Of a stretch of 64,000 nucleotides of DNA, positions 14,725-30,470 are shown in pieces. A program made the translations under genes and the position numbers. The DNA comes from Desulfobacterales bacterium (GTDB lineage Bacteria > Desulfobacterota > Desulfobacteria > Desulfobacterales > UBA5852): contig CAXXVS010000003.1 of the NCBI GenBank assembly GCA_963674755.2, forward strand, positions 1,120,001 through 1,184,000, written 5' to 3'. The first letter of the stretch is position 1. Each line of letters opens with the position of its first letter. The notes beneath the pieces are model-generated. The model was not told the DNA's origin and did no database searches. It was given only the letters and a program-made list of their open reading frames with translations.

Positions 14725-14735
14725 TTCACAAAATT

Positions 14736-14771
14736 AAAAGGCGACCGGTCCCACGACCGGCCGCCTTTTTT
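14736..14771. terminator. Intrinsic terminator between tRNA-Val and the convergent acyl-CoA dehydrogenase gene
   Basis: aaaaggcgaccggtc-ccac-gaccggccgcctttttt. Confidence 0.8.
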
Positions 14772-14795
14772 ATGTCTTCTTTCCGTCACAGGACC

Positions 14796-15956
14796 CTATA
14801 GCAGTTTGGCAATGATCTCCTTCATGATCTCGGTCGTGCCGCCGCCGATGGACAGAATGCGGTTGTCCCGATAGAGCCGCTCCACCAGGTAGCCCCGCAT
14901 GGTGCCGTAGCCGCCGAAGAGCTGCACGGCATCGTAGGTCACCCGGTCGCTGACGCTGCAGGCGAAATTCTTGGCCATGGCGACTTCCTTGAACTGGTCG
15001 ATGCCGGCGTCGATTTTGGCCGCCACCCGCCAGGTGTACTCCCGGGCGATGTCCACCAGGGTGGCCATATCCACCAGCTTGTGGCGGGTCACCTGGAAAC
15101 CGGTGAGGGGTTTGCCGAAAGCCGTGCGTTCCTTGGCATAGGCCTGGGCCTGCTCCAGCGCGAGCTGGGCGGTCATGTAGGCCATGACCGCCAGGGAGAG
15201 CCGCTCCCCCTGGAAGTTTTCCATGATGGCGTAGAAGCCCTGGTGCTCCTCGCCGATCAGGTTGGCAACCGGCACACGGCAGTCGTCGAAAAAGATCTCG
15301 GCCGTGTCCGAAGCCCACCAGCCGGTCTTTTTGAGGGGCGTGGATACGGCATAGCCCGGCGTATCGGATTCGATCACCAGCATGCTGATGCCGTGGGCGC
15401 CGGGCGCGCCGGTGCGCACGGCGCAGGTGATCTGGTCGGCCCGGGTGCCGCTGGTAATAAAGGTCTTGCTCCCGTTGACGATGTAATGATCGCCGTCGCG
15501 CACCGCCGTGGTGGCCAGGTTGGAGACGTCCGACCCGCCCCCGGGTTCGGTAATGGCCAGGGCGGCGATGCGCTCGCCGGCAATCACCGGCCGGACGAAG
15601 CGCGCTTTCTGCTCTTCCGTGCCGTGCCGCAGGATGGGCGGCAGGGCGATGTGCAGTGATCCCAGCCCGGCCACGAATCCGCCCGATCCCGCGCGCATGA
15701 GTTCTTCACTGGCCGCGATGGTGAAGAAGATATCGCCGGGGGTGCCGCCGACCGCTTCCGGATAGCCGATTCCCAATATGCCCACTTCTCCGGCCTTGTG
15801 GTAGATTTCCCGCGGAAAAATTCCCGCCTCCTCCCACTCGTCGATAAAGGGCTTGATCTCCTTGTCGACAAACTCCTTGACGGATCGGCGCACCATGTCG
15901 TGGGCCTTGGAGAAGTACTGCTGACAGGATGCGCGCGCATTGAATTCGATGGCCAT
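14796..15956 (-). CDS. Acyl-CoA dehydrogenase (AtuD/citronellyl-CoA dehydrogenase-like)
   Basis: AITEPGGGSDV, GSKTFITSG, GWWASDTAE, FQGERL, IGGGTTEIMKE; neighbours AtuA. Confidence 0.88.
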   Translation of the reverse strand: MAIEFNARASCQQYFSKAHDMVRRSVKEFVDKEIKPFIDEWEEAGIFPREIYHKAGEVGILGIGYPEAVGGTPGDIFFTIAASEELMRAGSGGFVAGLGSLHIALPPILRHGTEEQKARFVRPVIAGERIAALAITEPGGGSDVSNLATTAVRDGDHYIVNGSKTFITSGTRADQITCAVRTGAPGAHGISMLVIESDTPGYAVSTPLKKTGWWASDTAEIFFDDCRVPVANLIGEEHQGFYAIMENFQGERLSLAVMAYMTAQLALEQAQAYAKERTAFGKPLTGFQVTRHKLVDMATLVDIAREYTWRVAAKIDAGIDQFKEVAMAKNFACSVSDRVTYDAVQLFGGYGTMRGYLVERLYRDNRILSIGGGTTEIMKEIIAKLL

Positions 15957-16227
15957 TTTGACTTCCTTTTTTGGCGTTTATATTTGGCCGGAAAGAGACT
16001 ATCAGGCTTAACAGCAGGTCTGGAAAAGAAATGAATCGAGTCACAGCACCTGTATGACTGATAGGTGAAAATAAATCGGTGTCCGATTCTGAAATGAGGA
16101 TTTTTGTCTCTGATCAAGGCCCTAAAAAGGTTAGCAGTGAGGCATACATTAGTACGCTACAGATGCCAAACCTGAAGGAATCGCAGATCTATATCAATTT
16201 TTGAATCGGCTACAGCACAAGCAATGC

Positions 16228-16371
16228 AAGGTTCAGCCGGAATCTGTAGATTTTGGTTTCGACCAAGGCCGCAGCGATTTGGAAACCGCAGACGTAGTCA
16301 GCTACGTCGAGGATTTACAAAGAGCGAGAACGCTGGACGGGGCCAAAAGATGCCGGTTCCGGCTGAACCTT
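16228..16371 (+). repeat. Structured repeat family B, copy 1
   Basis: Perfect 15-bp terminal IR aaggttcagccggaa/ttccggctgaacctt; core gaaaccgcaRRcgtag..ctacgtcgaggattt. Confidence 0.9.
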
Positions 16372-16805
16372 TACTCCAGTTTAGGGGGCGGCATGACGAG
16401 CGCCGTCCCCTCCGCCACGGTTTCCCCCTTCTGGTTGGTCCAGAGCAGGGCCATGCGCACCCAGCGCTTGTCTTCCAGCTTTTCGGTCACTTCGGCCCGG
16501 GCCGTGATGGTATCGCCGAAGCGGGTCGGCGCCCGGAAGCGCGTGTTGATTTCCAAGGCCACAGTTCCCAGGCCGGGCAGCTTCATGCCCAGCACCGGCG
16601 CGATCAGGCACTGGGGCAGGGCGCCGTGGGCGATGCGGGTGCCGAAGGGGGTCAGCTTGGCGAATTCTTCGTTGACGTGCATGGGGTTGAAGTCTCCCGA
16701 AATGCCGGCAAAGAGATAGACATCGGTCTCGGTGATGGTCTTGCTGAACGACGCCGACATGCCGATCTCCAGCTCGTCGTAGGATTTGCCCAGTTCGAAA
16801 TCCAT
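16371..16805 (-). CDS. MaoC family (R)-specific enoyl-CoA hydratase
   Basis: FAGISGDFNPMH...IAHG hydratase motif; AGGAGG RBS before 16805. Confidence 0.92.
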   Translation of the reverse strand: MDFELGKSYDELEIGMSASFSKTITETDVYLFAGISGDFNPMHVNEEFAKLTPFGTRIAHGALPQCLIAPVLGMKLPGLGTVALEINTRFRAPTRFGDTITARAEVTEKLEDKRWVRMALLWTNQKGETVAEGTALVMPPPKLE

Positions 16806-16837
16806 GCGCCCTCCTTTGAAATCCATTTTATATTCGT

Positions 16838-18622
16838 TTATGGGGCTGCCTCATTTTGCAGTTCGGCGGGAATCGTTATGGTTTTGACGCGCAGGTATTC
16901 GCCCAGGGTCTTGGCCTGGGGGTCGCTCTTCAGGGACGCGGCCACCCCTTCCCCCAGAATCCCTTTGATATAGAAGTTCAACGCCCTCAGATTGGGCAGC
17001 GCGTAGCGTTCGATGGCATAGGGGGCCGTATCCGGCAGGAGCGATTTAAGCTGTTCCGTGGTGAGGTAGCGGTGCAGAAAAGCATAGGCCGCATCACTGC
17101 GGGCCCAGATCCCCAGGTTGGCGTTGCCCCCCTTGTCCCCCGAGCGGGTGCCGAACAGCCGTCCAAAGGGCAGCGCGACAGTATCTTGCACTGAGGGGGG
17201 GCGGTCTTCAACGGCCGTCCCAGCGGCTTGCGCCGCGGTGATTTCAGCGCCTGCGAGGGGCTCGACCATGACGCTCTCATCGCCGATCACCACCCGGGGC
17301 CGGACATGGCGGTTGGCCACCACGGCGGGCCAGTGCTGGATAGCCGGGGTGCCCTTGGTGGGCGGGGCAGTGGCTGTAAACCCGGGAATGCTCGCCAGGG
17401 CCAGCTCCACCACGGCGGCGGAAAAACGGGCGACTTTGGCCGGATCGGGATCCATGACCCCCAGGTGCAAATAGGCAAAAGCCTCCTCGTTGACGGCCGG
17501 ATCGGCCTGATCCGAGCGCACGAGACGGGCTTCGAACACGGCATACTGCTTGCGGCCGCCCAGGGCTGCGACGACGGTTTCTTCGAGGATGCGGGCTTTG
17601 GCTTCAATGTCGAGCCCGGTCAGGATGAGGGTCATACTGTTGCGGTGGCCGAAGAGATTGTTGAGGCAGACCTTGGTGGTAGGGGGCGGCGGAGCGCCCT
17701 GAACTCCGGAAACCAGGATGCGGTCTTCGCCGTCATCACTCAGTTGGATGGTGTCGAAGCAAGCGGTGACGTCCGGGGTCAGGTAATCCGGCGACCGGAT
17801 TTCGTAGAGCAGCTGGGCCGTGACCGTGCCTACGGAGACCCGGCCGCCGGTGCCGGGATGCTTGGTGATGACCGACGACCCGTCGGCATGGATTTCGGCA
17901 ATCGGAAAGCCCAGCTTGTGAAAGGAGGGGATCTCCTCGATGAAAGGGTAGTTGCCGCCGGTGGCCTGCCCGCTGCACTCGATGATGTGTCCGGCCACCG
18001 CGGCGCCGGCCAGGCGGTCCCAGTCCTCCCGCTGCCAGCCGAAATGCCAGGCCGCCGGACCGGTGACCAGGGCGGCGTCGGCCAAGCGGCCGGCCACGAC
18101 GATATCCGCCCCCCGGGTCAGGGCCTCGGCCACGGCCCAGCCGCCGATGTAGGCATTGGCGGATATGGGCTGGGCGCCGGCTTCCTGCAGCGGAGTGCCT
18201 TTGTCCAGATGCACGAAAGCCTCCCCCTGGGCCTGCAGTTCGGCCAGGCGGGGCAGCAGGTCGTCGCCCTCGATGTAGGCGATCTTGGGCGATAACCCCA
18301 ATTTCTCGGCCAGGGTCTGCAAGGCCTTGGCCAGCCCCTTGGGATTCAGACCGCCGGCGTTGCTGACCACCTTTATCTTGCGTTCCAGGCAGGTGTCCAT
18401 GACCTCTTCCATCTGGCGCAGGAAAGGGCGGGCATAGCCCAGAGCGGCGTCCTTGAGCTTCTGGCGGAAGAGGATTGCCATGGTGAGCTCCGCCAGGTAG
18501 TCACCGGTCAGGACATCGATGGGGCCGCCCTCCACCATCTCCCGGGCCGCGCTGAAGCGGTCCCCCAGGAAGCCGCTGCAGTTGGCGATGATCAGTTTGT
18601 CTGCGGATGGGGGTGCCGGCAT
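16838..18622 (-). CDS. atuA: Acyclic terpene utilization AtuA family protein (DUF1446 plus C-terminal domain)
   Basis: IANCSGFLGDR, GDYLAELTM, NAGGLNP, GHIIECSGQATGGN, RSGDKGGNANLG, DPQAKTLGEYLR. Confidence 0.9.
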   Translation of the reverse strand: MPAPPSADKLIIANCSGFLGDRFSAAREMVEGGPIDVLTGDYLAELTMAILFRQKLKDAALGYARPFLRQMEEVMDTCLERKIKVVSNAGGLNPKGLAKALQTLAEKLGLSPKIAYIEGDDLLPRLAELQAQGEAFVHLDKGTPLQEAGAQPISANAYIGGWAVAEALTRGADIVVAGRLADAALVTGPAAWHFGWQREDWDRLAGAAVAGHIIECSGQATGGNYPFIEEIPSFHKLGFPIAEIHADGSSVITKHPGTGGRVSVGTVTAQLLYEIRSPDYLTPDVTACFDTIQLSDDGEDRILVSGVQGAPPPPTTKVCLNNLFGHRNSMTLILTGLDIEAKARILEETVVAALGGRKQYAVFEARLVRSDQADPAVNEEAFAYLHLGVMDPDPAKVARFSAAVVELALASIPGFTATAPPTKGTPAIQHWPAVVANRHVRPRVVIGDESVMVEPLAGAEITAAQAAGTAVEDRPPSVQDTVALPFGRLFGTRSGDKGGNANLGIWARSDAAYAFLHRYLTTEQLKSLLPDTAPYAIERYALPNLRALNFYIKGILGEGVAASLKSDPQAKTLGEYLRVKTITIPAELQNEAAP

Positions 18623-18712
18623 GTCAATTTTCTCCTCTCCCCGCGTTATCGGTTTGATCTTTCTCTTGGTTTTATGATTGTAGTCTGACGAATATTGGTT
18701 TGGGAAAACGTT

Positions 18713-18981
18713 TAGGTTCGATCTAAGCCCTCCACTTCTGGTGGAGGACCCGGAGAGGCTTTACCGATCCGGGGTGGGTTTACATCAATTGGTTCCTTCC
18801 TTTTCTTTCACGTGAAAGAAAAGGAAGCTAAAAGAAAACGCCCGTGTCCCGTTTAACCCTGCGCGTCGCCGACACGGCCGGAGCACGCGGAAACTCCCCC
18901 GCCTGCGGCGGGGTCAGACAGTCCGCGCGCCTTAATCCGGCCGCATCGCCGATGCTCGGCGCGGAACAAAGGGAATAAAAC
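18713..18981 (+). repeat. Structured repeat family A, copy 2 (minimal form)
   Basis: Same blocks as copy 1 without the internal modules; perfect 32-bp palindrome cttccttttctttcac/gtgaaagaaaaggaag. Confidence 0.9.
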
Positions 18982-19128
18982 TTCGAAACAACCAAATTCC
19001 TATTAAACCACACAAGGAAATATTTCAGTCTTTCAATTCGTCCAGCTGTAAAGCTGCTTCTCTACGTTAAATGTGACCTACATTGTTCCTAAAGTTTTAC
19101 GAACGAAAAGGTAAGTTTTCTGCATCCT

Positions 19129-19273
19129 ACTGGGCGTCTTCAAATGGTGGATTTTGGCTCAAGGCAAGGCCCGAGGGATTTTGAAACCGCAGGCGTAGAT
19201 GCGCTACGTCGAGGATTTCAAAATCGTGAGAACGCCGCCCTGAGTCAAAAGACGCCGTTTGAAGATGCCCAGT
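19129..19273 (+). repeat. Structured repeat family B, copy 2
   Basis: 21-bp terminal stem with three G.U pairs; core gaaaccgcaggcgtagatgcgctacgtcgaggatttc. Confidence 0.9.
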
Positions 19274-20044
19274 CTAGTGGCCTACAAAGTTCGGCGCCCG
19301 CTTCTCCAGAAACGCCGTAATGCCTTCGCGGGCATCCTCGGTGGCCGCCACCTCGCCCAGTTTGCCGGCCAGGAAGTCGATGGCCTGATCGAAGGGCATG
19401 TCCGCCATGGCGTAGAAGGCTTCCTTGCCGATTTTCATGCCGATGGGGCTCTTGGACGCCAGCAGGGTCAGCAAGTCGCCGACCTCTGCATCCAGGTCCT
19501 CCCGGGACACGATCCGGGTGACCAGGCCCATTTCCAGGGCTTCTCCCGCGGTCAGGCGGCGGCCGGTAAGCACCATTTCCATGGCCTTTTTGCGGGGCAC
19601 GTTGCGGTAGATCAAGGCCCCGATCATCATGGGGAAGAGGCCGACGTTGACTTCCGGCGCCCCGAAGCGGGCATCCCGGCAGGCAATGACGATATCGCAG
19701 GCCAGCATGAGCCCCAGGCCGCCGGCCATGCAGGTGCCGTTCACCCGCGCCACGACAGGTTTGGGGAAGCCTGCCAGACGTTTGAGCAGGTTGGCGTAGC
19801 GGGCGATGACGGATTCGCTGTCGGCACTCATGCCGCCCAGATCGGCACCGGCGCAAAACGCTTTGTCACCGGCGCCGGTCACACAGACCGTCCGCACCGC
19901 CGCATCGGCTTCGGCCGTGTGCAGGGCCTCGTGAAAAAGAGCCAATGCTTCGGGGCTCAGGGCATTGCGCTGGGCTTCACGGTTCATGGTGATCCAGCCG
20001 ATTCGGTTTTCAGGATGGTAGATCAAGGGTGCTGTCTCGGTCAT
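19274..20044 (-). CDS. Enoyl-CoA hydratase/isomerase (crotonase family, LiuC/AtuE-like)
   Basis: AFCAGADL, CMAGGLGL, FGAPEVNVGL, EGITAFLEKR; GGAGG RBS before 20044. Confidence 0.92.
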   Translation of the reverse strand: MTETAPLIYHPENRIGWITMNREAQRNALSPEALALFHEALHTAEADAAVRTVCVTGAGDKAFCAGADLGGMSADSESVIARYANLLKRLAGFPKPVVARVNGTCMAGGLGLMLACDIVIACRDARFGAPEVNVGLFPMMIGALIYRNVPRKKAMEMVLTGRRLTAGEALEMGLVTRIVSREDLDAEVGDLLTLLASKSPIGMKIGKEAFYAMADMPFDQAIDFLAGKLGEVAATEDAREGITAFLEKRAPNFVGH

Positions 20045-20086
20045 GGCGGCCTCCCTTCCGGTTATCATGTAAAGCGAATGGTGCTG

Positions 20087-20614
20087 CTATGCTTCCGGCG
20101 CGTTTTCTTCCCCTGCGGTTTCCAGGTCCACCAGGATGTCGCCGGGCGCCACCTTGTCGTCTACGGCAACGTTGATCCCCGCCACCCGGGCATCGAAGGG
20201 CGCGGTGAGGGTCGTCTCCATCTTCATGGCCGATACCACCACCAGGCCGTCCCCGGCCTTGACCTGTTGACCCACGGCGACCATGATCTTCACCACCACA
20301 GCGGGCATGGGCGGTGTCGCGTCGCGGGGCAGCGTCGGCGAGGCGGCACCCGACACCGTGGATCGGGCCTGGGCGTCGGCATCGATCACCTGGTAGAGGA
20401 CGCCGTCGATCATGATTTGTTTGGCGTTCCCGTCGTCGCTGATAAACGCGTTGCAGCCGACCCCGTCGATGGTCAGGAAGAGATGGGTGTCATCGATGCG
20501 GCGGCCGGTCACGGCCAGGCGCTTCTCAGGCGATTCCATCTCCCAGGCGCCGTTTGCGGTGGGCGATACGGCCAAAGGGGTCGTTTTTTCCAGAAGGGTC
20601 AGATTGTATTTCAT
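20087..20614 (-). CDS. Biotin carboxyl carrier subunit (BT linker plus biotinyl domain)
   Basis: SAMKME biotinylation motif. Confidence 0.9.
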   Translation of the reverse strand: MKYNLTLLEKTTPLAVSPTANGAWEMESPEKRLAVTGRRIDDTHLFLTIDGVGCNAFISDDGNAKQIMIDGVLYQVIDADAQARSTVSGAASPTLPRDATPPMPAVVVKIMVAVGQQVKAGDGLVVVSAMKMETTLTAPFDARVAGINVAVDDKVAPGDILVDLETAGEENAPEA

Positions 20615-20645
20615 CGGTGTTCTCCCGTGGGTGCTGTCCTATGGG

Positions 20646-22133
20646 TCAACCGCGCCAGCCCCCCAGACTCTGCCAAGGGGAGGGGGCGCTCGGGCCCGTA
20701 CCGGGGGTTGCGGCCGGCCGGGCTTTGGGCATCAAGGCATCGGCCACGAAAGCGGCCCGGGCCGCGTCGGGATTCGGCGCCAGCGGCGTCCAGGCGGCCA
20801 GGTGCTCCGGGATGAAATCGGTATAGGTGGCGCCCCGGCGAAACGCCTCATGGTCCAGGACGTCCCGCAGAAAGGCGATGGGGGTGCGCACGCCCAGGAT
20901 GACATAGCTGGCCAGCGCCCGCCGGGCCCGGGCTATGGCGGCCTCCCGGGTTTCGGCCTGCACCACCAGTTTGGCCAGGATGGGGTCGTATTCCACCGGG
21001 ACGTGCGCCCCGGCGTAGATGCCGGCATCGATTCGGATCCCGGGGCCCTGGGGGCTTTTCAGATAACGGATGATGCCCGGGGACGGCAGGAAGCCGCAGG
21101 CGGGATCTTCGGCATAGATGCGGCATTCGATGGCGTGGCCCCGCCCGGCGATGTCTTCCTGGGCGTAGGACAGGGGCCGGCCGGCGGCAATCCGAATCTG
21201 CTCCCGCACCAGGTCGATGCCGGTCACCATTTCGGTAATGGGGTGTTCCACTTGCAGGCGCGTATTGACTTCGAGGAAGTAGAAGCGGCCCTCCGGATCC
21301 AGCAGGAATTCCACCGTACCGGCATTGACGTAGCCGGCAGCCCGCGCCGCGCGCACGGCGGCCTCTCCCATCGCGGCCCGCAGCTTCGGTGTGAGGGCCG
21401 GGGAGGGGGTCTCTTCGATGATCTTCTGGTGGCGGCGCTGGATGGAGCATTCCCGCTCCAACACATGAATGCAGTTGCCGTGGCGGTCGGCCATGATCTG
21501 GAATTCGACGTGCCGGGTCTTGGGCAGATACTTCTCGATGTAAATTGAGCCGTTGCCGAAGGCCGCCGCGGCCTCCCGGCCGGCGGCTTCCGCCGCTTCG
21601 GCCAGCGCTTCCGGGGCATGCACGATCCGCATGCCTTTGCCGCCCCCGCCGGCAGCGGCCTTGATCAAGACGGGATAGCCGATCTCCTCGGCCGCCGCGG
21701 CCAGTTTCGCAGGGTCGGTTTCGGCCTGGAGCTGACCCGGAATGACCGGCACGCCGCTGTCCTGCATGAGACGGCGGGCCACGGTCTTGTCCCCCAGATC
21801 GCGGATGGCCTCCGCCGGCGGGCCGATGAAGGTGATCCCCTCCTCGACACAGCGGGCGGCGAAGGCGGCATTTTCTGCCAAAAACCCGTAGCCGGGGTGG
21901 ATGGCTTCGGCCCCGGCCGACCGGGCGGCGGCCAGGATGCGGTCCTGGTTGAGATAGCTGGCCGTCGGGTCGGCGGCCCCTACCAGCACGGCCCGGTCTG
22001 CCGCCAGGACGTGGGCCGCGGTCTCGTCCGCCTCGGAATAGACGGCCACGGTCTCGATCCCCATCTCCCGGCAGGTATGCATGATGCGGCAGGCGATTTC
22101 GCCGCGATTGGCAATCAGGATGCGTTTGAACAT
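20646..22133 (-). CDS. Biotin carboxylase subunit of an acyl-CoA carboxylase (MccA/AtuF-like)
   Basis: ILIANRGEIA, IHPGYGFLAEN, GGGGKGMR, ERECSIQRRHQK, LEVNTRLQVEHP; the longer track start runs into repeat A3. Confidence 0.95.
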   Translation of the reverse strand: MFKRILIANRGEIACRIMHTCREMGIETVAVYSEADETAAHVLAADRAVLVGAADPTASYLNQDRILAAARSAGAEAIHPGYGFLAENAAFAARCVEEGITFIGPPAEAIRDLGDKTVARRLMQDSGVPVIPGQLQAETDPAKLAAAAEEIGYPVLIKAAAGGGGKGMRIVHAPEALAEAAEAAGREAAAAFGNGSIYIEKYLPKTRHVEFQIMADRHGNCIHVLERECSIQRRHQKIIEETPSPALTPKLRAAMGEAAVRAARAAGYVNAGTVEFLLDPEGRFYFLEVNTRLQVEHPITEMVTGIDLVREQIRIAAGRPLSYAQEDIAGRGHAIECRIYAEDPACGFLPSPGIIRYLKSPQGPGIRIDAGIYAGAHVPVEYDPILAKLVVQAETREAAIARARRALASYVILGVRTPIAFLRDVLDHEAFRRGATYTDFIPEHLAAWTPLAPNPDAARAAFVADALMPKARPAATPGTGPSAPSPWQSLGGWRG

Positions 22134-22148
22134 GATGCCGTTTCCTTT

Positions 22149-22503
22149 TAGTTTTGATCTAAACTCGCCGCCTCCGGTGGAGGACCGGAGAGGTTCGGCC
22201 GATCCGGGGAGCTTTTTTATAATTGGAGCCTTCATTTTCTTGCACGTGCAAGAAAACGGAAGCAATCACGCCTCGGCGTGACAGGCTTCAAACGCCCGTG
22301 TCCCGCGGCCCCTGCGGGGCTGCCCTGCGCGTCCCGTCGGCGGTCGGACGCGCCGAAACTCGCCCCGCCTTCGCCAAGGCTACGGCGGGACTCAGACAGT
22401 CGCCGCGTCTTTTTCGCCCTCCGACGGGATGCTCGGCGCGGGACAAAGGGAAATTCAAAACCAAAATCTCAAAAGCCGTTTTCAAGCCCCCTTCGGAGAG
22501 GCC
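22149..22503 (+). repeat. Structured repeat family A, copy 3
   Basis: Shared blocks; extra hairpins ggcccctgcggggct and cccgccttcgccaaggctacggcggg. Confidence 0.9.
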
Positions 22504-22552
22504 AAGGGCCACGTAACGCCGATCTGGGGCCAAAAGACAATTTTGAGTTTCT

Positions 22553-24169
22553 CTACATGCGGAAAATCCCATACCCCGGCGCCCCATCCCGCAGGGGCGC
22601 ATTGAGGGCTGCGGATATGGACAGCCCCAGCACATTGCGGGTTTCGGCCGGGTCGATGATGCCGTCATCCCAGAGATTGGCCGTGCTGTAGTAGGCATTG
22701 CCCTCTTTGCGGGCCGCCTCGACGATGGGTCCCTTGATGGCCGCCACGTCTTCATCGCTCATGGGGGGGGCCCCGGCCCGGGCGAGCTGATCGTTTTTGA
22801 CCGATATGAGGACATCGGCGGCCTGTTCGCCGCCCATGACGCCGATTTCGGCATTCGGCCAGGTCCACAGGAAACGCGGGCCATAGGCCCGACCGCACAT
22901 GCCGTAGTTGCCGGCCCCGAAAGAGGCCCCCGTCATGACGGTGAACTTGGGCACCGTGGCCGTGGACACCGCGTTGACCATCTTGTGACCGTCTTTGGTG
23001 ATGCCGATCCGCTCATACTCCCGGCCGATGATATAGCCGTTGATGTTTTGCAGAAAGACCAGCGGGATGCCGCGCCGGTCGCAGAGCTGAATGAACTGGG
23101 TGGCCTTGAGGGCGCTGTCCGAAAAAAGGATCCCGTTGTTGCCGAGAATTCCCACCGGGTAGCCGTGGATGCGGGCCATGCCGCACACCAGGGTCGTTCC
23201 GTAGAGGGCCTTGAATTCGGTAAAGTCGCTGCTGTCCACGATGCGGGCGATGACTTCCCGCACGTCGTAGGGCGTTTTCAGGTCACGGCTGACGATGCCG
23301 TAGATTTCCTTGGGGTCGTAGCGGGGCGGGGCCGGATCCTGCATACGCAGGCCCGCCTTGTCGGCCTCCGGCAGGTTGCGGACCAGCTCCCGCACGATGG
23401 CAATGGCTTGGGCGTCGTTGTCGGCCATATAGTCGGAGACCCCGGACTCCCGGCAATGCAGATCCGCGCCCCCCAATTCGTCGGCCGTGACCTCTTCGCC
23501 GGTGGCGGCCCGCACCAGGGGGGGGCCGCCCAGAAAGATGGCCCCGGTGCCCCGCACGTGAACCGCTTCGTCCGACATGGCCGGGATATAGGCTCCACCG
23601 GCCGTGCACAGCCCCATGACCGCGGCGATCTGGGGGATGCCCATTTTGGACATGACGGCCTGGTTGTAGAAGATGCGCCCGCCGTCGTCCTCGTCCGGGA
23701 AGATTTCGCTCTGCAGGGGCAGAAAGGCCCCCCCGGAGTCAATCAGATAGATCGTGGGCAGCCGGTTTTCCATGGCGATCTTCTGGGCCCGCAGGGACTT
23801 CTTGACCCCCAGGGGATAGATCGTACCCCCCTTGATCATGGGGTCGTTGGCATTGACGATCACCTCGCGCCCCTCCACCACCCCGATGCCGATCACACTC
23901 CCGGCCCCGTGGACCTTGCCGTCGTACATGCCTTTGGCCGCCAGGGCGCCAATTTCCAGAAAGGGCGTGTTGCGGTCCAGGAGCAGCTCCAGCCGTTCGC
24001 GCACCGGCAGCTTGCCCACCTCCGCCACGCGTTGGCGCGCCTTGTCGGAGCGTTCTTCCCGGGCCTGCTTAAGGTTTGCTTTGAGATCCGCCACCAGGGA
24101 GGTCATGCGGGCGAAGTTCTTCTGGTACGCATCGGATTGCGTGTCGATCCGGGTCGCTATCACGGCCAT
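22553..24169 (-). CDS. Acyl-CoA carboxylase carboxyltransferase beta subunit (MccB/LiuB/AtuC-like)
   Basis: DSGGAFLPLQ, CTAGGAY, GGPPLV, GASFGAGNYGMCGRAY, WDDGIIDP. Confidence 0.95.
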   Translation of the reverse strand: MAVIATRIDTQSDAYQKNFARMTSLVADLKANLKQAREERSDKARQRVAEVGKLPVRERLELLLDRNTPFLEIGALAAKGMYDGKVHGAGSVIGIGVVEGREVIVNANDPMIKGGTIYPLGVKKSLRAQKIAMENRLPTIYLIDSGGAFLPLQSEIFPDEDDGGRIFYNQAVMSKMGIPQIAAVMGLCTAGGAYIPAMSDEAVHVRGTGAIFLGGPPLVRAATGEEVTADELGGADLHCRESGVSDYMADNDAQAIAIVRELVRNLPEADKAGLRMQDPAPPRYDPKEIYGIVSRDLKTPYDVREVIARIVDSSDFTEFKALYGTTLVCGMARIHGYPVGILGNNGILFSDSALKATQFIQLCDRRGIPLVFLQNINGYIIGREYERIGITKDGHKMVNAVSTATVPKFTVMTGASFGAGNYGMCGRAYGPRFLWTWPNAEIGVMGGEQAADVLISVKNDQLARAGAPPMSDEDVAAIKGPIVEAARKEGNAYYSTANLWDDGIIDPAETRNVLGLSISAALNAPLRDGAPGYGIFRM

Positions 24170-24181
24170 AATTATAGTCTC

Positions 24182-24859
24182 CTAAACCGGGTGATCGGTA
24201 CGCAGCAGGTTCTGGATGCCGCCCACGATGAAGGCCACCGCATCCCGGCCCACCGCGTCGAGGTCGGCGTGGCGGTCCTGCCAGATCAGATATTGGTAGG
24301 CCAGGCGTTCGAACATCCCCAGGATGCTGGCTGCCATGACTTCTTCGGCCATCGTGCTCTCAAAGGGACCGAGGTTGTCGCCAATGCTTTTGAGCGCCGT
24401 CATGAGGTCGTCGATCAGCTTGTCGAAGATTTTTTTGCGGTGGGCTTCCACCGTCTCGCCCTGGCCCACCGACTCCCGGAAGATCAGAGCGATCTGGTCG
24501 GGGTGGCGAGGGCAGAAGTCTTCAAAAAAGACCATTCCGGCCCGCCGGATGCCCTCCAGGGTACCGTCGGCATTCCGGAAAGCTTCGCCCAGCAGATTGC
24601 GCAGCTCGTAGCCGGTCTGGTCCAGCAGTTTCACCAGCAGGTCTTCCTTGTTCTTGCAGTAGAAGTAGACCGTCCCCACGGAAACCTCGGCCTCGTCGGC
24701 AATGCGTTCCATGCCGGTGCGGTGGTATCCCTCCCGAGCGAATAGCCGTCCGGCGGCCGCCAGGATGGTCTGCAGGCGCTGTTCGCGTTCGCGCTGCCGC
24801 CGCAGGGCGCTCTTGGTCGATGGCGTGCGGGGCTTCGGAGGGGCTTTCGGTTTCGACAT
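24182..24859 (-). CDS. TetR/AcrR family transcriptional regulator
   Basis: ILAAAGRLFAREGY...IADEAEVSVGTVYFY..NKEDL HTH; AGGAG RBS before 24859. Confidence 0.93.
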   Translation of the reverse strand: MSKPKAPPKPRTPSTKSALRRQREREQRLQTILAAAGRLFAREGYHRTGMERIADEAEVSVGTVYFYCKNKEDLLVKLLDQTGYELRNLLGEAFRNADGTLEGIRRAGMVFFEDFCPRHPDQIALIFRESVGQGETVEAHRKKIFDKLIDDLMTALKSIGDNLGPFESTMAEEVMAASILGMFERLAYQYLIWQDRHADLDAVGRDAVAFIVGGIQNLLRTDHPV

Positions 24860-24872
24860 TATCTCTCCTGTG

Positions 24873-25018
24873 TAGTGCCCATCCAGAAATGTCATCTTTC
24901 GGCCCCGGCCGGCGTTCTCGCTCTTTGGAAATCCTCGACGTAGCTCACTACGCCTGCGGTTTTCAAATCGCTGCGGTCTTGGCCGGAACCAAAATCTACC
25001 ATTTCTGGATGGGCACTA
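24873..25018 (-). repeat. Structured repeat family B, copy 3 (inverted)
   Basis: Perfect 19-bp terminal IR tagtgcccatccagaaatg/catttctggatgggcacta; core is the reverse complement of copies 1 and 2. Confidence 0.9.
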
Positions 25019-25096
25019 AGTATGGGCAAAGTGATATTCGTGTCATTTCTCCAGAAAAGACAAAACCTATATGTCGCCTGCCACGCAGGAGAGGAT

Positions 25097-26233
25097 TCAC
25101 AATCTACCTAAAGCCGCGTCCCCGATCTTCACCCGGGCAATCTCGGTGGAGATGCCGGCGATCTGGCCGTATTTGGCGCAGCGGTAGGCCTGCTCGGCCG
25201 GCCCTCCCGTCAGGTAGCCGCTGCCGGACAGGATTTGCAGGGCTTTCCCGGCCACGGTCTCGGCCGCCTCGGTGCAGAACACCTTGGCGCAGAGGGTCAG
25301 GACGTTGGCTTCCCGGGGGGCGTCGTCCGCCATCCAGGCCGCCCGGTAGGCAAAAAGCTGGGCGGTCTGGCAAAGGGTCAGCATTTCCGCGAGCTTGAAG
25401 CCCACCTCCTGGTAGGCGATGATGGGCTTTCCGCCGGAGCGGTGAGTCTTGGCATGATCGCGGGCCGCTTCGAAACTGCTCTGCAGCATGCCCAGGGCGG
25501 CGGCGATCAGAATCTGGTTTTCCCACAGCTTGAGCTGACCCAGAACCGTCTCCCCGTCGAGGGGTCCGATCACCCGGTCAGCCGGCACCGGACAGCCGTC
25601 CAGTTCGAGGCCGCAAATGGCAAGCCCGTTGTAGCCCATGGTGGTCAGACGGTCCGTCATCTTCAGGCCGGGGCTTGGCCGGTCCACCAGGAAGACGGCC
25701 AGCCCGCCCTCCAGGCACCCCACCACGGCCAGGCAATCGGCCAGCGGGCCGTTGATGACATAGTTTTTCGCGCCGCTGATCAGGACCGTGTCTCCCTTGC
25801 GAGTGCCCACGGTGGTCAGGGGATCGTTCTCCACGTTCATGGCCGTTTCCGAAAGGGCCACGGCACCGACGATCCCGCCTGCCGCCACCTGCTTGGCGAG
25901 GGCCTCGACCGCCGGCGTTTGTTCGCCCAGGCTCAGGGCGCGGCCGAACAGCCGGGTGCTCATCTCCACCGCCAGGAACAGTGAAGGCGAAACCGTGGCT
26001 AGGCGTTCCATGGTGGCCATCAGGGCCAGGGTGCCCGCCACCGGCGGGTCGGGCAGGGAAGCGCCGATCTTCAGGTAGCCCAGGGGGGCCAGGGCGGCCA
26101 GGACCGCGGCCAGGTTGCCGCGCACCGTTTCAAGATCGCCGGATTCCAGGTCGCGATCCTGCGCGAGCTTGCGCAACGCGCTGCCAAGCTCGGCAAAAAA
26201 AGCGGTTTCGGTTGCGGAAAAATCAAAATTCAT
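25097..26233 (-). CDS. Acyl-CoA dehydrogenase family protein, divergent
   Basis: GAKNYVINGP, KPIIAYQEVGFKLAEM, KALQILSGSGY; FAD motifs degenerate. Confidence 0.85.
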   Translation of the reverse strand: MNFDFSATETAFFAELGSALRKLAQDRDLESGDLETVRGNLAAVLAALAPLGYLKIGASLPDPPVAGTLALMATMERLATVSPSLFLAVEMSTRLFGRALSLGEQTPAVEALAKQVAAGGIVGAVALSETAMNVENDPLTTVGTRKGDTVLISGAKNYVINGPLADCLAVVGCLEGGLAVFLVDRPSPGLKMTDRLTTMGYNGLAICGLELDGCPVPADRVIGPLDGETVLGQLKLWENQILIAAALGMLQSSFEAARDHAKTHRSGGKPIIAYQEVGFKLAEMLTLCQTAQLFAYRAAWMADDAPREANVLTLCAKVFCTEAAETVAGKALQILSGSGYLTGGPAEQAYRCAKYGQIAGISTEIARVKIGDAALGRL

Positions 26234-26279
26234 CGGGTTCTCCTTACGCTGGCCTGTTTCTGGCGCTCGACGCTGGCCC

Positions 26280-27422
26280 TTACAGTAATTTCGAGATGAT
26301 CATCTTCTGGATTTCCGACGTGCCGCCGCCGATGGGTGCCAGGCGCGTATCCCGGAAGATGCGCTCCACATCGAATTCATGGGTGAAGCCGTAGCCGCCG
26401 TGCAGGGTGACGGCATCGTTGGTGATCGCCAGGCTCCAGTCGCCCACGTACAGCTTGGCGATGGCCGCCTCCAGGTGGTTAAGGGGCTTGCCCTGGTCCT
26501 TGCACCAGGCGATGCGGTAGACCAGGGTGCGGGCGGCCTCGCCAAAGATGCGGATATCGGCCAGCTTGTGCTTGATGGCCTGGAACTTTCCGATGGGCCG
26601 GCCGAACTGGACGCGCCCCCGGGCGTAGTCGGCGCATTTTTTGAGCAGATAGGTGGTCGCGCCCACGAAGGGCGCCAGCAGGGCGCTGCGGTCCCATTCC
26701 ACGGTCTGCATGGCGTAGAAAAAGCCCTCGCCCTCCTTGCCCAGCAGATTCTCAGCCGGGATCTCGCAGTCCTGGAAGACCAGTTCGCTGGTCTGGGAGG
26801 AACGCACCCCCATTTTGATGAGGGGGCGCCCCGGCGAAAACCCCGGCGTGCCCTTCTCCACGATAAAGGCGCTGATCCCGGCGTGGGCCTGCTCCGGGTC
26901 GGTCTTGGCGTAGACCACGGCCACGTCGGCAATGGGACCGTTGGTGATCCACATCTTGGTGCCGTTGAGGACGTAGCGGTCGCCGCGCTTCTCGGCCGTG
27001 GTGGTCATGGAGGCCACATCCGATCCGGCGTCCGGTTCGGAAAGCCCCATGCAGCCGATCCACTCCCCGGAGGCCAGTTTGGGAATATAGCGCCGGCGCT
27101 GGGCCTCGGTGCCGTTGCGAAACAGGGTGTCCGCGCACAGGAAGGTGTGGGCGCCGTAAGCCAGGGTCAGGCCGCCGTCCACCCCAGCCTCTCCCAGGGC
27201 CTCGCCGGCCAGCACCGTGGTGACCACGTCGGCCCCCTCGCCGCCGTATTCGGTGGGGAAGTGCATCCCCAGCAGGCCGAAGTCGCCCATCTTGCGGAAG
27301 GATTCGAAATCGAAGGCCTCCTTGAGATCATGCTCCTGCACCCGGGGGACGATTTCCTTTTTGGCAAACCGGATCACCTCTTTCTTGAACATGAGCTGTT
27401 CCCTGGTGAACGCAAAATCCAT
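26280..27422 (-). CDS. Acyl-CoA dehydrogenase
   Basis: GLSEPDAGSD, GTKMWITNGP, QFGRPIGKFQAI, LHGGYG, IGGGTSEIQ. Confidence 0.93.
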   Translation of the reverse strand: MDFAFTREQLMFKKEVIRFAKKEIVPRVQEHDLKEAFDFESFRKMGDFGLLGMHFPTEYGGEGADVVTTVLAGEALGEAGVDGGLTLAYGAHTFLCADTLFRNGTEAQRRRYIPKLASGEWIGCMGLSEPDAGSDVASMTTTAEKRGDRYVLNGTKMWITNGPIADVAVVYAKTDPEQAHAGISAFIVEKGTPGFSPGRPLIKMGVRSSQTSELVFQDCEIPAENLLGKEGEGFFYAMQTVEWDRSALLAPFVGATTYLLKKCADYARGRVQFGRPIGKFQAIKHKLADIRIFGEAARTLVYRIAWCKDQGKPLNHLEAAIAKLYVGDWSLAITNDAVTLHGGYGFTHEFDVERIFRDTRLAPIGGGTSEIQKMIISKLL

Positions 27423-27506
27423 CCTGTCCGTCCTTTCACCGGCCGGCGGGCCGTTTGGCGTGATGCGCGGGTCTGCGGCTGACTATTTTTGAAGGTGATT
27501 ATAAAT

Positions 27507-27604
27507 TTGAATCTTGTTCAACCAATAAATACCAGCATTAGAGGATTCACGTTTCCCTTGTCAAGCAAAATTCGAACGAAATTATAAAATTGAATTAAGT
27601 TCAA
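27507..27604. promoter_or_regulatory. Two palindromic TTGAA-N5-TTCAA sites around a minus-strand TTGACA (candidate TetR operators)
   Basis: ttgaatcttgttcaa (27507-27521), ttgaattaagttcaa (27590-27604), tgtcaa at 27559-27564. Confidence 0.5.
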
Positions 27605-27741
27605 AAACAGGGGGTGCGTGGCGTGCGGCGAGTCCGGGCGGTCATTCCGCGGCGGGAGAGAAGGAATTGCACCCGTTCCCCGGTCGGTCGGGCCGGGTCC
27701 GTTCAACCGGCTGAATCCGTATGATCCCCACCATTTTTTTG

Positions 27742-27770
27742 TTGACCCTCTTCCCGAAACAGTCTATATC
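27742..27770 (+). promoter_or_regulatory. Sigma70 promoter of tRNA-Asp
   Basis: TTGACC-17 bp-TATATC. Confidence 0.5.
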
Positions 27771-27785
27771 GTAGGTCTCAATTTC

Positions 27786-27863
27786 GGGGGTGTAGTTCAG
27801 TTTGGTTAGAACGCCGGCCTGTCACGCCGGAGGTCGCGAGTTCGAGTCTCGTCGCTCCCGCCA
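27786..27863 (+). tRNA. tRNA-Asp(GTC)
   Basis: gggggtgtagttcagtttggttagaacg ccggcctGTCacgccgg aggtcgcgagttcgagtctcgtcgctcccgcca. Confidence 0.97.
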
Positions 27864-27909
27864 CGAAAATAAAGGCCTGTTACCGGTTGGTGACAGGCTT
27901 TCGTTATTT

Positions 27910-28161
27910 ATGGCTTACACTGTTTACATACTGGAGAGTGAGCGCACGGGCCGATATTATGTAGGGTCGACGGCAGATGTGGAGGAGCGCTTGACCCGCC
28001 ACAACCAGGGCCGATCTAAGTATACGAAAAGCGGTATCCCCTGGAAGGTGGTCTACACTGAGCAATGCGAAACGCGCGCTCAGGCCGTACGCCGTGAGAA
28101 ACAGATTAAGGGGCGAAAATCGCGGGCCTATATCGAAGATTTGGTTAGAACGTCCCGCTGA
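27910..28161 (+). CDS. Small stand-alone GIY-YIG nuclease (83 aa)
   Basis: YTVYIL...YYVGST...RLTRHN..G.SKYTK...A.RREKQIK signature; start trimmed to ATG 27910. Confidence 0.92.
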   Translation: MAYTVYILESERTGRYYVGSTADVEERLTRHNQGRSKYTKSGIPWKVVYTEQCETRAQAVRREKQIKGRKSRAYIEDLVRTSR

Positions 28162-28203
28162 CCAGCGGGAAGGTCGCGAGTTCGAGTCTCGTCGCTCCCG
28201 CCA
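28140..28203 (+). pseudogene. Partial tRNA-Asp duplicate (D-loop to CCA) with the anticodon arm replaced by a different palindrome
   Basis: tttggttagaacg + tcccgctgaccagcggga + aggtcgcgagttcgagtctcgtcgctcccgcca; 28171-28204 identical to 27831-27864; no 5' acceptor strand. Confidence 0.92.
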
Positions 28204-28210
28204 CAAACAG

Positions 28211-28250
28211 AAACAGGGACTTAGAAGCGATTCTGAGTCCCTTGTTTTTT
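28211..28250 (+). terminator. Hairpin/terminator after the pseudo-tRNA
   Basis: aaacagggacttagaa-gcga-ttctgagtcccttgtttttt. Confidence 0.7.
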
Positions 28251-28429
28251 GCCTCAATTCTTGCGATTCCAACCCTATTTCCAACCCCCGTAAGTCGACG
28301 CCGCTTTGGTCTTAGGTCTTGATTTGATGGCGATCGTGATTTACAAATAAGTTAAAGTAATTTCATAATAACCTTCACTGAATTCCGGCTCGTTCAATCT
28401 TCCTTAGTAATTAGCTGTCATTTGAGGAT

Positions 28430-29155
28430 ATGATGAACAATACATGTAAAATGCCTGATATCGGCGATTCCCCTTGGGACTATCCAATGTATACCGCCGC
28501 TGAGGCGGCAAGGTTCGTTGGTCTATCGTCCGGTCGCGTGCGTAGATGGATAAAAGGCTACAGCTATAAATATGAGAAATCAGAAAATGTTTTTGAGGTT
28601 AAACACCAAAAACCAGTAATTAAAAGAAGTGCTCCGCCAGACTCATGCTATGCTTCATTTGTTGATCTGATTGATCTTTTGTTTGTTAAGCGTTTTTTAA
28701 ATTACGGCTTAAGCTTACAAAAAGTCAGGTCAGCCCTTGTAGAAGCAACTCAAATACTTGGTACGAATCATTTTGCCAGGGAATCATTTTTTACAGACGG
28801 AAGAAACATATACTTAGAAGTTAAAGAAAGTGGAGATGCCATATTAGAACTACTCTCCGGCGGGCAATGGGTTATTTCATCAGTTATCCGCCAACTTTCT
28901 CACCAAATCGACTTTGATCAGCCATGCGGTATTGCTAGAAGATGGTATCCATTAGGGAAGAATGGCCTAATTGTGCTTGATCCTGCAATTTCCTTTGGAA
29001 GACCAATTATTAAAAAGAAAAATATCACGACATTAAACGTGTATGATTTTTTTAAAGGCGAAAACGAAGATATCGATAGAGTTTCTAAATGGATGAACAT
29101 CAGCGAGAATGAAGTTAAGGCCGCCATTCAATTTGAGCAACAAATTGCTGCATGA
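28430..29155 (+). CDS. Putative antitoxin: HTH plus DUF433 (VapB45-like)
   Basis: PMYTAAEAARFVGL...VRRW, SFVDLI, FFTDGR, IVLDPAISFGRP, EVKAAIQFE; AT-rich. Confidence 0.8.
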   Translation: MMNNTCKMPDIGDSPWDYPMYTAAEAARFVGLSSGRVRRWIKGYSYKYEKSENVFEVKHQKPVIKRSAPPDSCYASFVDLIDLLFVKRFLNYGLSLQKVRSALVEATQILGTNHFARESFFTDGRNIYLEVKESGDAILELLSGGQWVISSVIRQLSHQIDFDQPCGIARRWYPLGKNGLIVLDPAISFGRPIIKKKNITTLNVYDFFKGENEDIDRVSKWMNISENEVKAAIQFEQQIAA

Positions 29156-29532
29156 GATTCTTCGTCGATAATAATCTTAGTGTAAATATTGTGCTTGGCT
29201 TAAGGGCATTTGGGGAAGATGTTACACACTTAACCGAATGTTTCCCACCTGAAGTACAAGATGTCGAATTGTTAAAATATATTGGTGAAAAAGGGTGGTT
29301 TTTAATAACAAGGGACGAAAGAATTCGATACAATGTTGCAGAGTTTGCCGCACTAAAGAGATATAAGGTCGGTGCTTTTTTTATAGGTGGAAAGAATAGG
29401 GGCCGATGTGAGTTAATTCGGCAAATTGTCAGAAATTGGCCGCGCATAAAAGAACAAGCCGCAAAGAATAGAACACCCTTTGCATACAAGGTACCCCCTA
29501 CTGGTACTAAGTTTAAAAAATACCCACTTTAA
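29152..29532 (+). CDS. Putative PIN-like toxin (VapC45/DUF5615-like)
   Basis: RFFVDNNLS, D.E.L, LITRD.RIR; ATGA overlap with the upstream gene. Confidence 0.8.
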   Translation: MRFFVDNNLSVNIVLGLRAFGEDVTHLTECFPPEVQDVELLKYIGEKGWFLITRDERIRYNVAEFAALKRYKVGAFFIGGKNRGRCELIRQIVRNWPRIKEQAAKNRTPFAYKVPPTGTKFKKYPL

Positions 29533-29586: not shown

Positions 29587-30470
29587 ATGCCACGTCAATC
29601 CCGATTGGACGCACCAGGCGCCCTGCACCATATCATCGTTCGCGGTATCGAGCGGCGCAACATCTTTGCCGACGATTGTGACCGATATGATTTTATCAAC
29701 CGGTTGGGCGTTATTGTTAAAGAGACTTATACCGTCTGTTTCGCCTGGGCCCTGCTTCCCAACCATTTTCATCTTTCCTCTGCCAAGAGGACAGCTACTT
29801 CCTGGAGTTGGTGCGCTATATCCATTTGAATCCGCTAAGAGCCAAGTTGATCCCGGATATGAATGCCCCTGGTCGATATCCCTTTTGCGGCCGTAGCGTC
29901 ATCATGGGCCAAACCCAACAATCCTGGCAAGATATCGATAAAGTGCTCAGCTATTTCGGAAAGCAAAGGGGGCCAGGGCGGCGGAGCTACCGCGCGTTTG
30001 TCTCGAAAGGAATAGAGCAGGGAAGACGATCGGATTTCACCGGAGGCGGATTGATTCGGAGCCAGGGTGGCTGGGAGGCGGTCAAAAGCCTACGAAAAAC
30101 CGGAGATCACCGCGAAAGCGATGAACGTATCCTTGGCGATAGCGTTTTCGCCAAAAAAGTGCTGGCATAAAGTGAGGAGGTCTTGGAGCGAAAGTATGCC
30201 CTGCAAGCAAGGGGCATTGGCATTGAAGACATGGCCGAACGCGTGGCACATTTGCTCGGAATGACCTACGATGAGGTATGGCTTCCCGGAAAATACCAGA
30301 AACAGGTAGCTGCACGCAGCCTGTTGTGTTTTTGGGCGGTAAACGAATTGGGATTCAGCGTGACCGCCCTTGGTAAAAAATTAGGTATTTCCGTGCCTGC
30401 CATCAGCAAGTCGGTACGGCGTGGCGCTGCGATCGCTCACGAAAATAGCTATATGATTTTCCGAAGTTAA
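29587..30470 (+). pseudogene. RAYT-like / IS200-type Y1 (HUH) transposase with C-terminal HTH, inactivated
   Basis: MPRQSRLDAPGALHHIIVRGIER...LPNHFHL, then internal deletion plus frameshift (~29776) to CQEDSYFLELVRYIHLNPLRA; in-frame TAA at 30168; C-terminal ARSLLCFWAVNELG. Confidence 0.85.

Follow-up and report, generated by a model that had tools for sequence, protein, structure and literature searches.

Integrase-borne elements at the 3′ ends of tRNA genes restore the tRNA through duplication of their target. REP/RAYT and IS200/IS605 elements have hairpin-marked ends and give rise to gene-less derivatives; such hairpin elements are discussed in the available text of a study of the GIY-YIG nuclease SsnA (PMC11893778). 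According to the same text, SsnA binds the NTS hairpin as single-stranded DNA (ssDNA), cuts upstream of it, shows no activity on double-stranded DNA or RNA and needs residues Y6, Y17 and E64, and its authors (Chenal et al. 2025) note that the arrangement NTS-ssnA-NTS resembles an insertion sequence (PMC11893778). The word ‘tRNA’ occurs 0 times in the main text of that study. In phage T4, SegB is described in the available accounts as a free-standing GIY-YIG homing endonuclease with a 27-bp site that includes a T-arm motif (PMC2330249, PMC2988022). Stand-alone prokaryotic Slx1-like proteins are predicted repair enzymes, and insertion at tRNA genes is not mentioned in the text consulted (PMC1564403). 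Our literature search, which covered neither subscription papers nor the PMC11893778 supplements, where tRNA neighbours might be listed, found no description of the cassette reported here.

The cassette is a 340-bp insertion inside a tRNA-Asp gene, where it duplicates the 3′ third of the gene and leaves the tRNA intact. It lies in a 64,000-nucleotide stretch of a Desulfobacterales genome (the window); all window features below are on the forward strand. The intact tRNA-Asp(GTC) called at 27786-27863 is the sole Asp tRNA among 59 tRNA calls in this 6.7-Mb genome. Its promoter-like site, read by eye at 27742-27770 (TTGACC, 17 nt, TATATC), and its native terminator (28215-28252) belong to the host and lie outside the cassette; a consensus promoter scan did not flag the former, and a similar sequence also precedes empty alleles. 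The tRNA sequence from nt 44 to CCA plus 1 nt recurs exactly as a 34-bp direct repeat (27831-27864 and 28171-28204, spacing 340), and because of this repeat the insertion can be placed equivalently at 27831-28170 or 27865-28204. A further 13 nt of D-loop and D-stem sequence ending at nt 26 (27801-27813) recurs exactly at 28140-28152, a spacing of 339. Between the two matches, the 17-nt anticodon arm (27814-27830, tRNA nt 27-43) is swapped for 18 nt at 28153-28170, a palindrome with 8-bp arms, a 2-nt centre and a conserved TCCCG...CGGGA core. The original prediction had described a tRNA-Asp, a hairpin, an 83-residue GIY-YIG reading frame and exact 13- and 34-nt matches, and all were found about where it had placed them. 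The unit is not an assembly artefact, because contigs from four public sequencing runs span it (27839/27875 to 28171/28203), one of which (X1) may be the source sample. An Rfam scan of the locus matched the tRNA alone and returned no family for the downstream copy. The reported lack of an integrase held for phage integrases: a search with PF00589, the tyrosine-integrase family, matched nothing in the window and 17 sequences in the whole genome, one of them near a tRNA-Asn system described below.

The empty tRNA-Asp site expected in relatives was found in a genome of the same genus (G001, locus L069), and its alignment with the window contains one 340-bp gap. In G001 the terminator and downstream DNA directly follow the intact tRNA-Asp, and here the same DNA follows the downstream copy; the cassette was therefore inserted into the gene, and the downstream 34 nt are the original 3′ end of the tRNA gene. 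What had been taken for a second, carried copy of the tRNA is thus real as sequence and native in origin. A search of 40 relatives, which are not independent of one another, gave 29 tRNA-Asp loci. By eye we classed 3 of these as intact cassettes, 4 as remnants or internal deletions, 1 as no more than an upstream stub and 19 as empty; the remaining 2 were cut by contig ends. One relative with 95% identity upstream (G004) has lost the gene body and retains the hairpin, the start codon, the D-loop copy and an identical palindrome. This patchy distribution of gain and decay resembles that expected of a selfish element. Within the contigs of public runs we saw neither excised nor amplified forms, and no joint skips exactly one unit. 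A contig from run X3 joins 27901 to 28142 through 29 other letters; considered as an excision product, it instead fits the gene-less derivative of G004. Contigs of RNA runs X19 and X20, which contain only small shares, gave no coverage of the reading frame, and contigs cannot show absence. The locus, which occurs filled, empty and deleted within a single genus, is a direct test case.

The insertion encodes a single-domain GIY-YIG nuclease of 83 residues (27910-28161; PF01541, E 3.8e-17). Across 91 homologues Y6, Y17, R27 and H31 are invariant and E63 is at least 90% conserved. Its predicted structure (pLDDT 90) and its sequence best match a UPF0213 protein (PDB 1zg2) and Slx1, with 1ywl also listed; no NCBIfam model matched it above cut-off. 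Compared with seven NTS-flanked proteins standing in for SsnA in the cd10448 comparison, the nuclease shows 27-34% identity and stands apart in the tree; it is nearer to UPF0213/Slx1-like folds, and the comparison points away from membership of the cd10448 clade. The last residues, LVRTSR, had been read as coming entirely from the D-loop copy; LVRT does, and SR together with the TGA stop (28159-28161) is encoded by the palindrome. An obligatory fusion of gene and pseudo-tRNA did not hold up: of 77 loci, 41 have their stop codon within the palindrome.

To place the locus in its family we took 66 loci from genomes and, out of 546 found in metagenomes, the 80 best; of 148 loci, 96 had enough flank. 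The named records among the closest matches are mostly Desulfobacterota. A same-strand tRNA lies within 450 nt upstream or 300 nt downstream in 78 of the 96 evaluable loci, 52 of them at Asp, against the 0.8% of the present genome that falls within 500 nt of a tRNA. Among 250 genomes sampled evenly across the phylum (best 60 of 150 listed matches taken, 51 evaluable), a tRNA was nearby in 7/9, 17/32 and 2/10 loci by descending score. The same nuclease family recurs at more than ten tRNA isotypes, and a FastTree phylogeny of 166 short proteins resolves clades that are each specific to one isotype (Asp 0.91, Ala 0.97, Asn 0.99, Glu 0.97) on a weak backbone. Tandem copies occur in 17 of 146 loci, with four copies in L025. 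Eight loci (L027, L273, L036, L362, L371, L372, L285 and L305) show a mirror layout, in which a 5′ stub with the palindrome precedes the nuclease and the intact tRNA. Together with the empty site, these counts uphold the proposal of a nuclease-linked mini element that inserts and amplifies at tRNA genes. Neither of two outcomes set against that proposal, homologues with no association with tRNA genes and an arm swap unique to this locus, came about.

Some members depart from this picture or complicate its annotation. Asp-clade nucleases at L345, L347, L016 and L010 sit at tRNA-Asp debris with no intact tRNA called nearby, which may reflect later disruption or relocation. ARAGORN calls the palindrome-swapped copies at L052 and L306 as tRNAs with odd anticodons (Stop-TTA, Val-AAC), so cassettes can yield false tRNA annotations. 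The present genome holds a second system at tRNA-Asn, comprising two nuclease paralogues of about 40% identity and, in their vicinity, four fragments that bear a palindrome. This tRNA-Asn(GTT) system (G000:C1:1292640-1295830, minus strand) has palindrome-bearing upstream stubs, and its two GIY-YIG paralogues (DNA 93% identical) have two cargo genes (325 and 293 aa) between them; its palindrome replaces nt 25-34 only, and a broken integrase lies ~700 nt beyond the system.

Upstream of the tRNA-Asp cassette, tRNA-Val(TAC) and tRNA-Asp, adjacent in most relatives, are ~13 kb apart (14725-27733), and a short remnant of the tRNA-Val 3′ end at about 27726-27734 suggests an insertion at tRNA-Val upstream of tRNA-Asp. 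Within this interval, 20000-27422 carries acyl-CoA dehydrogenase and carboxylase-like genes. Downstream, low-GC DNA at 28430-29532, which also occurs behind the empty site of G001, carries an HTH/DUF433 gene and a PIN-like gene, likely a toxin-antitoxin pair. A fragmented gene resembling a REP-associated tyrosine transposase follows at 29587-30470 (weak NF047646 match, below cut-off).

The arm swap is precise and recurrent. Of the 48 distinct Asp loci that have a palindrome downstream, 38 place the two junctions at nt 27 and 44 and the other 10 fail a junction. The swap is shared by Met and Val loci; Asn and Ser loci differ in their junctions, and an Ala clade has a different, 11-nt palindrome in the same place. 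In this tRNA-Ala(GGC) clade (L351-L356, L363) the 11-nt palindrome sits in the anticodon-arm copy, and some members have a second copy in the T arm; the clade’s palindrome is evidence of clade-specific nuclease/hairpin pairs.

The original prediction had considered the replacement palindrome unrelated; the swap itself was confirmed, and the palindrome proved to be imperfect and to be a family motif. We found a downstream palindrome in 47 of the 96 evaluable loci with a search that required a TCCCG/CGGGA core, so that conservation of the core is partly built in. Beyond the core, the next stem pairs of 64 distinct palindromes covary freely (pair 6: 24 C-G, 21 T-A, 13 A-T). G-T pairs make up 5 of 177 pairs in palindromes versus 92 of 804 in leaders, as would be expected of a DNA hairpin. 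The core TCCCGC..GCGGGA is common to the palindrome and the Neisseria NTS hairpin; the published SRM pattern had 0 matches in window positions 27701-28400 and among 82 palindromes. The core alone is not specific, because this GC-rich genome holds 158 core-type palindromes, only 5 of them within 500 nt of a tRNA. A core invariant across isotypes and phyla, a covarying stem and an NTS-like core point to a recognition site rather than arbitrary filler, and the idea that the swapped arm merely makes the duplicate cleavage-resistant finds no support in that form.

Tails, in turn, follow their hosts. Colinear tails, with 11 variants to choose from, equal the local tRNA in 20 of 28 loci; 20,000 shuffles gave a mean of 3.1 and a maximum of 10. 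For 22 of 29 loci, the tRNA differs from that of the neighbour closest in nuclease sequence; at 64 of the 66 differing positions, with reciprocal pairs counted twice, the tail agrees with the tRNA of its own host. The D-loop copy tracks the host tRNA less tightly (40 of 48, shuffle 32). Both shuffles overstate significance because the loci are related. Among non-colinear tails, about 10 of 19 have a second palindrome in the T arm, as judged by eye.

Somewhat better than an even chance, in our estimate, attaches to the following reading: the unit would be a selfish cassette built around an Ssn-like nickase of ssDNA hairpins and copied into tRNA genes by host annealing and recombination. The 83-residue enzyme would bind the palindrome as an ssDNA hairpin and nick adjacent to it. 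The palindrome would be the cognate site and, by analogy with SsnA and NTS, the nick would fall a few bases 5′, in the D-loop sequence; because 0 of 82 palindromes match the SRM pattern and identity to the proxies is 27-34%, SsnA chemistry enters here as an analogy. D-loop copy, palindrome and tail together would act as an attachment site. On its annealing to a tRNA gene, each strand would loop out one hairpin, which would explain why the exchanged segment is exactly a stem-loop. If the crossover fell 3′ of the arm, it would give the layout seen here, with the intact tRNA first; if it fell 5′ of the arm, the mirror layout would result. Host recombination over the D-loop and tail homology would copy the unit into tRNA genes, and unequal exchange between the 34-bp repeats would produce arrays and clean loss. 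The strand that is cut could belong to either the donor or the empty allele.

The leader adds a further component, which together with the empty site is an addition of this analysis. A terminator-like hairpin (27872-27901) stops 8 nt short of the ATG. The sequence of its 5′ arm (27875-27883) is similar, in sense orientation, to the anticodon loop, and the region of its 3′ arm (27890-27905) is an inverted, antisense copy of tRNA nt 23-38, matching at 13 of 16 nt and spanning the anticodon loop. The host arm ranked top against other isotypes’ arms in 35 of 50 Asp leaders and in 0 of 20 empty-site trailers; a second scoring gave 34 of 51 Asp leaders (3.3 expected) and 4 of 22 leaders of other isotypes (1.5 expected). 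As a general family trait the inverted leader is unsupported outside the Asp clade (1 of 15; 4 of 22, near chance). At L011, a close homologue at tRNA-Val, the inverted segment matches Val. Several loci have the segment outside the terminator, 15-26 nt long, and it is therefore more than a stem. Common descent in one clade explains part of its conservation. Functionally, the inverted leader might hold the element in check: it might pair with the native anticodon arm, which would mask the arm or else gate read-through and translation, or it might be a target-like decoy comparable to the I-TevI operator (PMC2988022).

In seven loci (L001, L008, L233, L244, L253, L258 and L267) the leaders are long and consist of inverted, degenerate copies of the tRNA 5′ half. 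Read by eye, their inverted anticodon loop is TTGACA, 17 nt before TA and mostly 29 nt before the ATG, an arrangement that looks like a leaderless promoter. The notion that the inverted segment is a mere -35 box suits these seven leaders and not the window, where the segment lies 20 nt before the ATG.

Classical homing, as put forward in the original prediction, would read the same features differently: in an empty allele the enzyme would cut the native anticodon arm, whose place the palindrome would take as a resistant replacement, and the inverted leader would shield the intact upstream copy. The isotype-specific nuclease clades suit this account, as do the exact removal of nt 27-43 and the retention of nt 30-37 of the inverted segment in 36-38 of the 39 leaders that pass a three-mismatch filter. 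Predicted in-cis pairing between leader and arm exceeds a probability of 0.5 in 13 of 48 loci as RNA and in 16 of 48 as DNA; it is negligible in the window (P 0.00 as RNA, 0.01 as DNA), where forcing it costs 7.3 kcal/mol as RNA and only 2.2 kcal/mol as DNA, and the DNA values count towards homing. A precedent is I-TevI, which, in the available text, has an operator that resembles its homing site (PMC2988022). Against these points, a resistant filler need not hold its core invariant across phyla or match NTS, and palindromes persist in gene-less derivatives and in extra T-arm insertions. Moreover, about a third of Asp leaders have no inverted segment, which on this account would leave the sole tRNA-Asp gene an unprotected target. 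We regard classical homing as the main rival, and as unlikely.

We give little credence to a minimal, self-targeting element in which base pairing, and not a protein domain, would aim the 83-residue nuclease. The palindrome would be the handle, the target would be chosen or protected by the inverted anticodon segment together with the tRNA-matching arms, and these arms would be renewed from each new host tRNA. Such base-pairing-aimed nucleases, if real, would form a re-targetable, nucleic-acid-guided GIY-YIG class and would rank among the smallest autonomous elements known.

That the unit is an att relic, left by a tyrosine integrase acting in trans or by a lost island with the nuclease as passive cargo, is very improbable. 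Integrases do leave a 3′ tRNA duplication that restores the gene, and one of the genome’s 17 integrase matches lies near the tRNA-Asn system. Yet the window has none, the unit measures 340 bp and holds a single gene, integrases do not generate a D-loop copy, a palindrome or mirror layouts, and the same nuclease family occurs at more than ten isotypes. Equally hard to credit is a guided nuclease, in which D-loop copy, palindrome and tail, as RNA or ssDNA, would serve as the guide, with the palindrome as handle and the arms as target. It would account for a hairpin set between two target-matching arms that overlap the end of the reading frame and for arms that always match the local tRNA, and SsnA cuts substrates assembled from two oligonucleotides in the available account (PMC11893778). 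The same account describes SsnA as inactive on RNA (PMC11893778), the few G-T pairs speak against an RNA scaffold, and the tail match is explained by the native gene end. Least credible of all is an RNA-level device, a tRNA-like 3′ end that processes, stabilizes or regulates the mRNA of a domesticated nuclease, possibly sensing tRNA-Asp through the inverted leader: a T arm plus CCA follows the stop, the leader hairpin ends close to the ATG and G-U-compatible changes outnumber other transitions in the inverted segment by 19 to 2 (14 of the 19 at one position, which is also in the terminator T-tract), but the unit is missing in most relatives and often decayed, the stop position varies, and the tail is the host’s old 3′ end, which a second palindrome interrupts, as judged by eye, in about 10 of the 19 loci whose tails are non-colinear.

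Returning to the proposed hairpin-nickase cassette, its closest sequence and fold matches are the Slx1-like/UPF0213 proteins (PDB 1zg2, 1ywl), with which it shares a minimal domain without the C-terminal Asn region described in the available text (PMC1564403). Like integrase islands, it has a duplicated tRNA 3′ end that restores the gene; unlike them, it has no tyrosine integrase. It also differs from REP/RAYT and IS200/IS605 elements in having no HUH transposase, and because a hydrolytic nuclease cannot reseal the DNA that it cuts, rejoining would fall to host repair. It resembles SegB, as far as the accounts available go, in that the GIY-YIG gene is found at tRNA genes, relatives have empty alleles and a hairpin precedes the start codon (PMC2330249, PMC2988022). 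SegB, in contrast, is intergenic in a phage, whereas the cassette lies within a tRNA gene of the chromosome, with its target duplicated and a palindrome on board, and its 83-residue nuclease has no room for a separate DNA-binding domain. Set beside free-standing homing endonucleases in general, it has a cognate empty allele and departs from the intergenic position, the unduplicated target and the added DNA-binding domain.

If the proposed reading is right, the very common, unexplained ‘GIY-YIG family’ genes of about 80 residues would have a likely role, parasitizing tRNA genes while leaving the host tRNA functional. The reading would also explain odd tRNA fragments in genomes and offer many natural enzyme/hairpin pairs for site-specific ssDNA cutting.

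The nearest functional counterpart is Ssn. Both systems pair a single-domain GIY-YIG nuclease of <100 aa with an oriented hairpin, share the core TCCCGC..GCGGGA and have the same catalytic positions, as given in the available text (PMC11893778). They differ in that the cassette palindromes miss the SRM pattern, the nuclease is distant from the NTS-flanked proxies and has no C-terminal extension, and the cassette hairpin lies inside tRNA sequence in the place of a stem-loop, at a site whose empty state is demonstrated. By analogy, and membership aside, the cassette likely works as Ssn does. It would then extend the principle of paired nuclease and hairpin to a sister lineage and supply, in its empty site, arrays and gene-less derivatives, the evidence of mobility that is only hypothesised for NTS-ssnA-NTS.
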